A stretch of 64,000 nucleotides of DNA from Desulfobacterales bacterium (lineage in GTDB: Bacteria > Desulfobacterota > Desulfobacteria > Desulfobacterales > SpSt-501). Where the stretch lies: positions 8,346 to 72,345 of the forward strand of contig JAWOHH010000139.1 in NCBI GenBank assembly GCA_046496215.1. Reading direction: 5' to 3'. Under the pieces are notes generated by a model. The model worked only from the letters and a program-made list of their open reading frames with translations, was not told where the DNA came from and made no database searches. Position numbers and translations under genes: made by a program. Shown here piece after piece: positions 30,311 to 33,632 of the stretch (the first letter of the stretch is position 1; each line of letters starts with the position of its first letter).

Positions 30311-31081
30311 CTATTCGTCGATCAGCTTTTTGCGATTCTGGATGTAGCCGTTGCGGATCGCGACATAGGGGTCGAGGGAGGCCTTTTTGATCGCAGCGTA
30401 GTCTCCGATGCGAAAGGTGGTGTCGTTGACGGCCTCGCCGCCCCGGAGGCTCAGGGACAACGTGAGGTTGGAGTACCAGAAAAAGGGGTCCAGGAGGCTG
30501 TCGGGCAATCTCCCCGCGGCATCGCGGATCGTGGCGGGACCGAAAAAGGGCAGCGTCAGGAAGGCGCTGTCCTGCCAGCCCCACACCGCCAAGGTCTGCC
30601 CCATGTCCTCGGGGCTCTTCGCGAGCCCGGGATAGGCGGCGGCCACATCGGCCATGCCCAGCATCCCCACCGTGGTGTTGACGAAAAACGCGGCGAATTC
30701 ATCCCCGCTTTTTTCCCATTTGCCCTGGAGCAGGCAGTTCACGAAGCGCACCGGGAAACGGATGTTGCGCAGGACGTTGCGGAAAATCGTGCGGAACTCC
30801 CAGGGCACGACGGCCTTGACGCCCTTGGCGGCGGGCTCGAGCACGTAGAGCAGCAGAAAATCGTTTATGACGTACATATCGCGGTTGAACGGCTCCAGCG
30901 GGTCCCTCACCGTCGGGCGCCGACCGTTGTCGTCCTCGTCCTCGTCCTCCTCGTAGGCGTTGGCGACCGAGGCGGCGGCAGCGGTCGGCGGGGGCTCCTT
31001 GGCCAGGGCCGGCAGGACCGGGCCATGGCACACCCAGAGGGCGGCCAGCAGAAGGGCGGTAAGCGGGAGTCTAACGCGCAT
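30311..31081 (-). CDS. mlaA: MlaA/VacJ family protein
   Basis: DPLEPFNR, NTTVG, EDMGQTLAVWG, LPFFGPATIRD, DPYVAIRNGYIQNR. Confidence 0.9.
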   Translation of the reverse strand: MRVRLPLTALLLAALWVCHGPVLPALAKEPPPTAAAASVANAYEEDEDEDDNGRRPTVRDPLEPFNRDMYVINDFLLLYVLEPAAKGVKAVVPWEFRTIFRNVLRNIRFPVRFVNCLLQGKWEKSGDEFAAFFVNTTVGMLGMADVAAAYPGLAKSPEDMGQTLAVWGWQDSAFLTLPFFGPATIRDAAGRLPDSLLDPFFWYSNLTLSLSLRGGEAVNDTTFRIGDYAAIKKASLDPYVAIRNGYIQNRKKLIDE

Positions 31082-31105
31082 GAATTGTTTTCCCCTTCAG
31101 GCGTT

Positions 31106-31693
31106 CTATTTGGTTTTCTCGATCCGGATGGCCAGTGCCTCGGTCAGCCGCAGGACGACATCCTCGCCCTTGCGAACGTCGCCGAGCCGCTTGAAGCTGC
31201 GATCGACCGTGACGGTCTTGCGGCCCCCATCGGCCTCCAGGATTGCCAGGGTGTGGGCTTTGAGGTCAATCGCCTCCACCTTGGCCGGCATCTGAATGGT
31301 CTCGACCAGTAGGATCGCCGGCCTGGCGCCCTTCGGCGCCACCGAAACCAGACGCGGCTCGAGTGCATTCGGCGGAGCGTCGGCCGGGCGCACCAGAACG
31401 GCAATGGACTCGATGCAATCCACCCGGACCCGATCGCCCCTTTTCAGGCTTTGGAAGTTCTTGACGACCTTGTCCGCCTTGAAGCTGAAGGACCTGCCCT
31501 GCGGGTTCTTCAGCCGCACGATGCGCTTGGCGGAATCGATCGATTCCACGACGGCGCGCATCTCCAGCACATCGGTCACGACGATTCCCGGCTTCCCCGC
31601 GTATTTGTCCGCGGCCGGCGCCGGTCCACCGGCCGATGCCGCTCCGACCCCCACGCACAGGACCACCGCAATGGCCAAAACCAGGTGTTGCAT
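31106..31693 (-). CDS. Exported hypothetical protein with two internal beta-rich repeats
   Basis: Signal peptide; repeats A.VESID..RIVRLK..G..LKRGDRV and A.VEAID..TLAI..G..VRKGEDV. Confidence 0.75.
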   Translation of the reverse strand: MQHLVLAIAVVLCVGVGAASAGGPAPAADKYAGKPGIVVTDVLEMRAVVESIDSAKRIVRLKNPQGRSFSFKADKVVKNFQSLKRGDRVRVDCIESIAVLVRPADAPPNALEPRLVSVAPKGARPAILLVETIQMPAKVEAIDLKAHTLAILEADGGRKTVTVDRSFKRLGDVRKGEDVVLRLTEALAIRIEKTK

Positions 31694-31854
31694 GAGCACC
31701 TTCGACGTCGGGCCTCCCCGAGGGGGCGCATTCGGATACATCATTTAGATTCTATCGGTTTTGGATTAAAAAGGCCAGCACCATTTTGGCACCCAAAATC
31801 CGCGCCACCCCGCAAGGGTTGAACCGGGCCGACAAAAAAGCTGTTAAAAAAAGC

Positions 31855-31882
31855 TTGACAGCTTTTTGAAATACGATATGGT
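31855..31882 (+). promoter_or_regulatory. Putative sigma70 promoter of the trp operon
   Basis: TTGACA-16 bp-TATGGT upstream of the leader. Confidence 0.45.
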
Positions 31883-31906
31883 GTGCGCCCGAGAAAGGCA
31901 GATCCT

Positions 31907-31984
31907 GTGAAGATCGAACCGATTCAGATCCCTCGCGACACGATATCCGGACAGTGGTGGTGGCAGGTCGCTCCCGCGGAGTAG
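31907..31984 (+). CDS. trpL: trp operon leader peptide MKIEPIQIPRDTISGQWWWQVAPAE
   Basis: GAAAGG RBS, GTG start, three tandem TGG codons, upstream of terminators and trpE; not in the ORF track. Confidence 0.88.
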   Translation: MKIEPIQIPRDTISGQWWWQVAPAE

Positions 31985-32007
31985 CCTGCACGACCGGCGT
32001 TTGACAT

Positions 32008-32047
32008 AAAGGATCGTGGGCCGCTCCAGAGGCCCACGGTCCTTTTT
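32008..32047 (+). terminator. Attenuator terminator T1
   Basis: AAAGGATCGTGGGCC-GCTCCAGA-GGCCCACGGTCCTTTTT. Confidence 0.85.
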
Positions 32048-32057
32048 CAGTTTTGAC

Positions 32058-32098
32058 GAAAGGCTGTGGGCTCAAAACCCCACAGCCTTTCTTTTTTT
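32058..32098 (+). terminator. Attenuator terminator T2
   Basis: GAAAGGCTGTGGG..CCCACAGCCTTTC followed by T7. Confidence 0.85.
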
Positions 32099-32150
32099 CG
32101 ATCAGTTCACCGCGGCGGGCACAGGCCACCGCCATACCGATGGAGGCTTT

Positions 32151-33632
32151 ATGATACTCGGTCGTTTTCCCGAACAGAGCAAATTCCTGAAGCTTGCCGA
32201 AAACTACGACGTGGTCCCGGTGTGCGCCCAGGTTTTGGCCGACATCCACACGCCGGTGTCCCTCTTCGGCCGGTTCTACGACAACAAGGGGCCGATCTTC
32301 TTTCTGGAGAGCGTTGAGGGCGGCGAACGCTGGGGGCGCTATAGCTTTCTGGGCTTCTCCTCCCACCTGATCGCGCGGGTCTATGCGGACCGGTTGGAGG
32401 TGGAGCAAAACGGAACCGTGCGCAAAACTCACCACGCCGGCAAGCCGTTCCAGGCGCTCCGGGCGCTCCTGGCGCCCTACCGACCCGCCGACCTGTTCAA
32501 CCTGCCCCGTTTCTGGGGCGGCCTGGTCGGCCACATCAACTACGAGATGGTTTCGTTCCTGGAGGCCATCCCGAACCGCTGGCCGCCCGACCGACCGCTG
32601 GCCTGCTTCATGATCCCGGGAGAGGTGCTCATTTTCGACAACGCACGGCACACACTCCTCATCGTGGCCATCACCTTCCCGAAGCAAGAACCGGCGGCGG
32701 CCTGGGTCGACGCCGAGGCGCGGCTCGAGAGGATCCTGGAAAAGATCTCCGCCCCGCGGGTGCGGCGCCCGGACGTACCCGCCAACGGCAAGCCGGAGCT
32801 CGTCGCCACCCTGGCCGAGGAGGAGTTCCGCGCCACCGTCCGCACCGTCAAGGAGCGCATCCGGGAGGGGGAGATCATTCAGGCGGTGCTCTCCCAGCCG
32901 TTCGCCTGCGCTCACACCCCGGACCCCTGGCGGCTCTACCGGGCCATGCGCTTCATCAACCCCTCGCCCTACCTGTTCTTCGTGCACCTGGACGACACGG
33001 TCCTGGTCGGCTCATCGCCCGAAACCATGGTGCGGCTGGAAAACCGCGTGGCCACCCTGCGGCCCATCGCCGGCACCCGGCCGCGCGGGCGAGCCGAGCA
33101 GGAGGACCGGAAGCTCGCCGACGAGCTGCTGCGGGACGAAAAGGAGCGCGCCGAGCACCTGATGCTGGTCGACCTGGGCCGCAACGACCTCGGCCGCGTG
33201 GCCGAAATCGGCAGCGTCCAGGTGACCGACCTGATGGTGGTCGAACGCTACTCGCACGTGATGCACCTGGTCTCCAACATTCGCTGCGACCTCAAACAGG
33301 GCCTGGACGCCTGGGATCTGCTGGCCGCGACCTTCCCGGCCGGCACCCTGACCGGCGCCCCCAAGGTCCGCGCCATGGAGATCATCGCCGCGCTCGAGCA
33401 GGAACCCCGCGGCCCCTACGGCGGCTGCGCCGGCTACCTGTCGTTCAGCGGGAACATGGACATGGCCATCACCATCCGGACCGCCTGCATCACGAACGGC
33501 CGGCTCTCGGTCAGGGCCGGCGCCGGCATCGTAGCGGACTCGGACCCCGAGCGCGAGCGCCAGGAGACCGTCAACAAGGCCAAAGCGCTCCAGAAGGCGC
33601 TCGAGCTCGTCACCCCGGAAGCGACCCGATGA
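32151..33632 (+). CDS. trpE: Anthranilate synthase component I
   Basis: LESVEGG..GRYS, NPSPY, PIAGTRPRG, EHLMLVDLGRND, GAPKVRAM; GGAGG RBS. Confidence 0.96.
   Translation: MILGRFPEQSKFLKLAENYDVVPVCAQVLADIHTPVSLFGRFYDNKGPIFFLESVEGGERWGRYSFLGFSSHLIARVYADRLEVEQNGTVRKTHHAGKPFQALRALLAPYRPADLFNLPRFWGGLVGHINYEMVSFLEAIPNRWPPDRPLACFMIPGEVLIFDNARHTLLIVAITFPKQEPAAAWVDAEARLERILEKISAPRVRRPDVPANGKPELVATLAEEEFRATVRTVKERIREGEIIQAVLSQPFACAHTPDPWRLYRAMRFINPSPYLFFVHLDDTVLVGSSPETMVRLENRVATLRPIAGTRPRGRAEQEDRKLADELLRDEKERAEHLMLVDLGRNDLGRVAEIGSVQVTDLMVVERYSHVMHLVSNIRCDLKQGLDAWDLLAATFPAGTLTGAPKVRAMEIIAALEQEPRGPYGGCAGYLSFSGNMDMAITIRTACITNGRLSVRAGAGIVADSDPERERQETVNKAKALQKALELVTPEATR

Follow-up and report, generated by a model that had tools for sequence, protein, structure and literature searches.

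The systems closest to the element reported here are summarized from excerpts of the cited papers. In the his attenuator, six RNA segments alternate between two sets of helices, A:B/C:D/E:F and B:C/D:E; a stalled ribosome leads to B:C plus D:E and read-through, and otherwise E:F terminates transcription (PMC4046918). The trpL region of Escherichia coli, upstream of trpE, combines tandem Trp codons in a short leader with hairpins 1:2, 2:3, and 3:4 (PMC4615214). Tandem terminators in a 5' leader, together with a potential antiterminator, are described for the rimP-leader of some Gammaproteobacteria (PMC2965389), and multiple attenuation elements within a single leader, with a pair of short open reading frames (ORFs), for Salmonella mgtCBR (PMC3641672). 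Furthermore, Lopatovskaya, Seliverstov, and Lyubetsky (2010; PMID 20198868) are credited with attenuation by "chains of RNA helices" on the basis of comparative genomics (PMC4833913); theirs is the likeliest prior description and may already cover the leaders considered here.

Here, we analyzed a 64,000-nucleotide stretch of a Desulfobacterales genome (GenBank GCA_046496215.1, contig JAWOHH010000139.1, positions 8,346 to 72,345; "the window"). Upstream of trpE, it carries a leader peptide with three consecutive Trp codons (WWW), six alternately complementary segments, and two U-tailed hairpins, T1 and T2. Judging from the sequence and modeled folds, this is probably an attenuator that senses Trp through the translating ribosome, a single stall of which would open both terminators in series. 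Its six-segment relay topology under one ribosome is the same as that of hisL of Salmonella enterica and E. coli (RF00514) as excerpted, but hisL uses His codons and the present leader Trp codons. Furthermore, the E. coli his C:D hairpin has no U tract, leaving one terminator, whereas both hairpins are U-tailed in 61 of the 92 trpE leaders compared below. Tandem Trp codons and the pairings 1:2, 2:3, and 3:4 before trpE are likewise found in E. coli trpL (RF00513); however, trpL has four segments, one terminator, and TrpR alongside, and a search with a working control detected no TrpR in this 100% complete genome. The stems of the rimP-leader carry inverse rather than relay-compatible motifs, and the excerpted account mentions no leader peptide, whereas the present stems are relay compatible and follow one. 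The mgtCBR leader, as excerpted, contains two short ORFs, in contrast to one ORF and one signal here.

The element belongs to the leader-peptide attenuator class and not to the Rfam trp or his leader families. An ORF with the operon's control codons (WWW) precedes trpEGDCFBA, an intrinsic terminator recognizable by sequence only lies between leader and first gene, and a predicted antiterminator (2:3, −20.7 kcal/mol), free when the ribosome stalls and covered when it reaches the stop codon, overlaps the 5' arm of T1. As in the his-type topology, 2:3 plus 4:5 is exclusive with 3:4 plus 5:6, with within-family covariation of 4:5 not significant; a U tract confined to the last hairpin, as in his, is not what these leaders have. 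Neither RF00513 (Trp_leader) nor RF00514 (His_leader) matched in the window even at an E value of 10 or in four relatives (L007, L024, L119, and L217), and both E. coli controls matched. The Rfam search of the region returned chance matches only, with no T-box match upstream of trpE within 30500-33000, and a search for TRAP (PF02081) detected none in the 100% complete genome (Bacillus subtilis control positive). The first-pass annotation of this locus took such an architecture to be apparently undescribed. That holds in part: the relay topology has its precedent in the his attenuator (PMC4046918, as excerpted), and we found no description of one leader ribosome relaying two U-tailed terminators in a literature search that covered few subscription journals. 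The same search yielded no paper on Trp leader-peptide transcription attenuation with a terminator in Deltaproteobacteria. The novelty lies in the U tract of the middle hairpin and in the recurrence of the module on aromatic leaders; this extends the textbook attenuation switch and leaves its basic principle unchanged.

The features of the locus, in window coordinates and all on the + strand, are as follows.

31855..31882, +, candidate sigma70-type promoter by sequence (−35 TTGACA, 16-nt spacer, −10 TATGGT)
31891..31898, +, putative purine-rich ribosome-binding site of the leader, 8 nt 5' of its GTG
31907..31984, +, leader peptide ORF trpL, 25 amino acids, GTG 31907 to TAG 31984, VKIEPIQIPRDTISGQWWWQVAPAE and stop (stop codon 31982-31984)
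31955..31963, +, three Trp control codons (WWW), within segment 1
31955..31974, +, segment 1, predicted partner of segment 2 while the ribosome is absent
31978..31996, +, segment 2, predicted partner of segment 1, or of arm 3 and the T1 loop
32008..32022, +, arm 3, the 5' arm of T1
32023..32030, +, T1 loop; in the predicted antiterminated state, segment 2 pairs with its first five bases
32031..32047, +, arm 4, the 3' arm of T1, with a U run at 32043-32047; alternative partner of arm 5
32058..32070, +, arm 5, the 5' arm of T2
32079..32098, +, arm 6, the 3' arm of T2, with a U tract at 32088-32090 and 32092-32098
32142..32146, +, Shine-Dalgarno sequence GGAGG of trpE, by sequence
32151..33632, +, trpE (ATG 32151), heading the operon trpE-G-D-C-F-B-A, which extends to 38850

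The products of trpG, trpD, trpC, trpB, and trpA each scored above their family cut-offs; that of trpE fell below (best family trpE_most, 491 bits; cut-off, 517.7), as did that of trpF (191.6; cut-off, 215). The candidate at 31855-31882 is the sole promoter-like site within 31000-32600, and a TTGACA is found 5' of the leader in most relatives displayed. Another conceivable reading is that the leader transcript ends at T1 or T2 as a separate small RNA, with trpE served by its own promoter past T2. The 52 nt between the T2 tail and the trpE start in this genome might house one, yet the sequence between T2 and trpE, where a promoter had been named beforehand as contrary to attenuation, contains no promoter-like site. 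In relatives the distance from the arm-6 core to the start codon has a median of 52 nt and a minimum of 9 nt, and the ribosome geometry is that of an attenuator; we consider such an arrangement exceedingly improbable. Two further observations concern the flanks. The GC-rich stretch 32111-32135, which separates T2 from the trpE ribosome-binding site, has the potential to fold into a small hairpin in the closest relatives (L002 to L004 and L019), and a divergent 212-amino-acid ORF at 31106-31744 on the minus strand, 5' of the promoter, matches no NCBIfam family at an E value of 1e-25.

The named sequences, the WWW leader, and the 1:2, 2:3, and 4:5 pairings claimed in the first-pass annotation are all present where it placed them. 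T1 spans 32008-32047 (stem 32008-32045, 15 pairs, predicted −29.3 kcal/mol), and T2 spans 32058-32098 (stem 32058-32091, 13 pairs, predicted −24.7 kcal/mol). For segments 1 and 2, the predicted duplex has −18.6 kcal/mol and the hairpin over 31950-32000 has −25.9 kcal/mol. The relay helix 4:5 joins 32031-32046 to 32058-32072 with a predicted duplex energy of −24.2, which bears out the claimed complementarity of the T1 3' arm to the T2 5' arm; the mirror pairing 3:6 is weaker (−11.7). Genome-wide, we counted 576 terminator-like hairpins and 3 tandem pairs, and the trpE pair alone has cross-complementary arms (−23.8 versus −9.1 and −2.1). Among 607 strong U-tailed hairpins obtained with a second hairpin definition, the T2 5' arm ranks 4th as a partner for the T1 3' arm. 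The core motif shared by T1 and T2 occurs in only 6 of these 607, and we rejected the idea that it is a generic terminator motif of this genome. No second copy of the tandem module was found in the genome by two scripts or a covariance model. As a separate matter, T1 also scores as a terminator on the minus strand (32015-32038), and the A runs preceding T1 and T2 could terminate antisense transcription.

The annotation had suggested a survey of trpE leaders as a check, and related genomes were compared here. A first sample comprised 30 trpE loci (35 of 41 genomes matched). An order-wide survey located trpE in 124 of 161 genomes, at 126 places, of which 13 were already in the first sample and 100 were added; the 13 others were two second copies, two places near contig starts, and the nine weakest. 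Of the 130 combined regions upstream of trpE, all from the order, 112 were called with both a Trp leader and two hairpins and 4 with a leader and one terminator. No leader was called in the remaining 14, although L201 and L204 among these show leader and tandem by inspection. A Trp-rich leader was thus called at 116 loci, one of them (L030) falsely. An anchor filter on the core hexamer retained 92 leaders from 48 families and removed 20 loci, several with mis-called hairpins or a false leader. The named relatives belong to the Desulfobacterales, and the tandem was also seen in a Smithella and a Desulfovermiculus record. Outside the order (52 of 71 genomes matched), 9 of 28 loci have the tandem by eye and 4 of 28 a single terminator; in L220 and L221 from this set, the first hairpin differs in sequence and the T2 core is as usual. 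In L030/L046 (a Desulfatibacillum alkenivorans record) and L267, trpE is leaderless and directly behind another gene, and a tandem-module match lies about 1.1 kb upstream. A loose pattern search of 6 genomes gave thousands of matching places and was uninformative.

We propose that the switch would work as follows. When Trp is plentiful, the ribosome would run to the stop codon at 31982-31984 and cover segment 2; T1 (3:4) would form, and polymerases leaking past it would meet T2 (5:6). When Trp is scarce, the ribosome would stall on 31955-31963, segment 2 would take arm 3 and part of the T1 loop (2:3), and the free arm 4 would catch arm 5 (4:5) before arm 6 is made. Neither terminator would then form, and trpEGDCFBA would be transcribed. 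That the ribosome exerts this control, that transcription terminates at either site, and that shut-off is tighter are what we infer from the sequence and predicted folds.

The 2:3 pairing exists as claimed, but segment 2 proved longer than first drawn and reaches the T1 loop. As first drawn, its predicted duplex with arm 3 has −13.0 kcal/mol; energetics computed with that short segment (−11.1, barrier 5.0) were superseded by those of the full helix, 31978-31995 with 32011-32027, which has 15 bp, a predicted −20.7, and a barrier of 14.6. The extension into the T1 loop recurs in 89 of 92 leaders. Across families, segment 2 prefers its own arm 3 (−19.0 versus −15.4 when shuffled; 0 of 4,000 shuffles), and in the within-family contrast, under-powered for this helix, 9 comparisons were better, 6 worse, and 4 tied (P = 0.61, not significant). 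The geometry also fits ribosome control: the first paired base of the antiterminator lies a median of 15 nt past the last Trp codon (search from +10), and a ribosome at the stop codon would reach the antiterminator in all 92 leaders. To displace 2:3, T1 would have to overcome a predicted barrier of 14.6 kcal/mol here, with a median of 15.1 in the 92 leaders; the same findpath estimates, made without pseudoknots, give 5.8 for the E. coli trp and 11.7 for the his control. With arm 5 made and arm 6 pending, T1 is less stable than 2:3 plus 4:5 in all 92 leaders and more stable than 4:5 alone in 70. Free folding changes from 4:5 with the ribosome stalled to 3:4 with the ribosome at the stop codon in 47 of 92 leaders and never in reverse; it stays at 3:4 (T1) in every state in 22 leaders and at 4:5 in 18. 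Because both terminators together are predicted to be the more stable state once everything is transcribed (−54.0 for the full transcript of this locus), the open state can only be a kinetic trap.

At position 32073, the predicted equilibrium fold of this leader is T1 plus 2:5 (−47.3), below 2:3 plus 4:5 (−45.1). This departs from the annotated scheme, in which stalling at WWW opens T1 and the freed arm disables T2 and which conservation, the asymmetry of 4:5 over 3:6, and folding across the leaders support. Together with a short 2:5 duplex of predicted −13.3, the fold at 32073 would suit a mechanism with no relay, in which T1 refolds after the polymerase has passed and the released segment 2 pairs with arm 5. 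We judge that route very improbable. Across families 2:5 has no own-partner preference (P = 0.47 to 0.68), which led us to reject it as a conserved route and indicates that T2 is not normally opened directly by segment 2. The 2:3 helix is more stable than 2:5 in 87 of 92 leaders, and the GGC required by segment 2 occurs in arm 3 in 83 of the 92 and in arm 5 in 25. The 14.6 kcal/mol barrier likewise stands against T1 displacing 2:3.

Both hairpins are conserved structures. In a covariation alignment of 47 sequences (one per family, four for the genome's own genus, long-spacer leaders left out), T1 and T2 covary, with 93.1% of positions paired and two-sided changes in 21 of 24 pairs, and both terminators pass the within-family own-partner test. 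Counting tails of at least 6 U in 8 nt, 61 of 92 leaders have both, 19 have that of T1 only, 9 that of T2 only, and 3 neither. The T1 tail of this genome has 5 U in 8 nt, where relatives usually have 7, and the T2 tail has 7; because of the weaker T1 tail, T2 probably does much of the stopping here.

These tails bear on the choice between two working terminators and a his-type relay with a single one (here T2), in which T1 would be a relay or pause hairpin like his C:D. The short T1 tail of this genome fits the latter, as do L193 and L206, whose first hairpin has no U tail, and L199, whose T1 tail is weak, all three with T2 intact; if regulated, these leaders could be controlled only through the chain. 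At least one tail has under 6 U in 31 of the 92 leaders, and the T1 U run also lengthens the 4:5 helix. The T1 tail nevertheless has at least 6 U in 80 of 92 leaders, unlike E. coli his C:D, which has none. It persists at positions unpaired in 4:5 (U at 185 of 274, versus 214 of 457 in the spacer beyond). It is also retained in 21 of 26 leaders that have no A run before T2 to pair with, and so is not merely the partner of such a run. In L114, L134, L160, and L192, T2 is absent and T1 is the sole terminator hairpin. We therefore regard a single working terminator as unlikely, and two terminators opened by one ribosome as the better account.

A second alternative concerns the helix that would couple the two hairpins. 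T1 could belong to an ordinary four-segment attenuator followed by a Trp-blind T2 that cuts output by a fixed factor, 4:5 being left over from a duplication. That the hairpins share a core, and that single-terminator versions with the same core exist, would be in keeping with this. However, plain duplication would favor 4:5 and its mirror 3:6 equally, and for this reason 4:5 looks selected: its paired fraction is 94.3% versus 76.6% for 3:6, with 0.48 versus 2.04 mismatches per leader (92 leaders). In an anchor-free comparison, 4:5 is more stable in 98 of 112 loci; within the 20 anchor-dropped loci, several of which are mis-called hairpins, it is ahead in just 12 versus 8. One column reads A, U, G, and C in arms 3, 4, 5, and 6, respectively, giving A-U in T1 (86 of 92), U.G in 4:5 (81), G-C in T2 (84), and A.C, which breaks the mirror pairing, in 3:6 (80). 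This fixed asymmetry may be one inherited event; with the column excluded, 3:6 is still worse in 44 leaders, equal in 38, and better in 10.

Own-partner tests on 4:5 are less uniform. Across 48 families (one leader per family, five draws), arm 4 prefers its own arm 5, at about −15.3 versus −13.2 and with 0 of 5,000 shuffles reaching that value. The mirror 3:6 also lies above its shuffles, by a smaller excess of about 0.7, which indicates that shared descent and GC content inflate these tests. Two results would be expected of a duplication leftover: strict two-sided changes in 4:5 are no more frequent than when shuffled (4 pairs versus 3.8, most variation being wobble), and the within-family contrast, under-powered for 4:5, gave 7 better, 3 worse, and 9 ties in 19 families (P = 0.34, not significant). 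Against it, the arm 5 core changes almost only from C to U, which the invariant G of arm 4 tolerates. An unregulated hairpin of −24.7 with 7 U would block induction, variants in which T2 alone is tailed would have no Trp control, and leaderless tandem terminators (the others of this genome; L285) have no cross pairing. A Trp-blind T2 is, in our estimate, quite improbable, and the relay helix 4:5 appears to be under selection.

In the annotation, T1 and T2 also looked like tandem copies sharing a TTTGAC flank. Only 1 of 92 leaders, that of this genome, has TTGAC ahead of both hairpins, and we rejected this private flank as evidence of a recent duplication. Under alternating pairing, arms 3 and 5 must be alike, as must arms 4 and 6; the E. 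coli his leader has just as duplicated a look, C being like E and D like F. An ancient duplication may still be the origin of the pair, since there are single-terminator versions that have the same core.

The double hairpin is also found on other leaders. A covariance model of the two hairpins matched 40 of 41 related genomes and, in this genome, the trpE site only. Since the model was trained on trpE leaders, the 40 non-trpE matches (L274 to L313, in relatives) are biased towards similar sequence; by reading, 36, including one with a single Trp, lie behind a leader rich in Trp or in Phe/Tyr/Trp, three are leaderless, and L305 has a LeuA-like gene downstream and no aromatic leader. In ten representative downstream proteins scanned for families, we found two classes of DAHP synthase, ADH synthase, TrpD, a PaaK-like ligase, an ABC binding protein, a LeuA-like protein, and one product without a family; the trpD genes downstream of the module in relatives stand alone. 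Among the 31 paralogous leaders that could be anchored (8 could not), 4:5 outdoes 3:6 in 25, ties with it in 2, and falls short of it in 4, which again differs from the parity expected of a leftover, and in the leaderless L285 the cross pairing is absent.

A broader reading, which we hold to be evenly poised between right and wrong, is that the module is a portable relay cassette of the Desulfobacterota. One stalled ribosome would open two genuine intrinsic terminators in series, and leak-through would be roughly multiplied down when Trp is plentiful. Conserved wobble positions (A-U for T1, U.G for the relay helix, G-C for T2, and A.C for the forbidden pairing) would make the chain one-directional. 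On trpE, trpD, two DAHP synthase classes, ADH synthase, and a phenylacetate-CoA-ligase-like gene, the cassette would serve again and again behind leaders rich in Trp or in Phe/Tyr/Trp and would provide a high dynamic range without the TrpR repressor. A single intrinsic terminator limits the shut-off of an attenuator, and two on one ribosome would widen the range without a repressor. The lineage offers natural one-terminator, his-like, and two-terminator versions, with which the growth of relay chains and the benefit of a second terminator can be tested. The module defines an RNA family that is absent from Rfam and marks aromatic amino acid regulons in Desulfobacterota, and it could serve as a compact part for synthetic switches.

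Several of the non-trpE loci deserve mention individually. The aroG-type leaders of the genome's own genus (L279, L283, L288, L292, L293, L299, L301, L307, and L308) have a short or absent T2 U tail, and in L307 and L308 both U tails are poor; these leaders may stop transcription weakly or otherwise. In one relative (G025, contig C1, 1033439-1033963), divergent Trp-leader attenuators stand back to back before trpE (L254) and a DAHP synthase gene (L274), each with the tandem module. Lastly, in the present genome, contig C17 at about 70020-70180 (L213) carries a leader of its own, MGRFFRFWWFRSVHPGR and stop, upstream of a gene at 70428-71198 that encodes a DAHP synthase apparently fused, by eye, to a prephenate dehydratase-like domain. 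This leader has one U-tailed terminator behind further complementary segments and is possibly a his-like chain.
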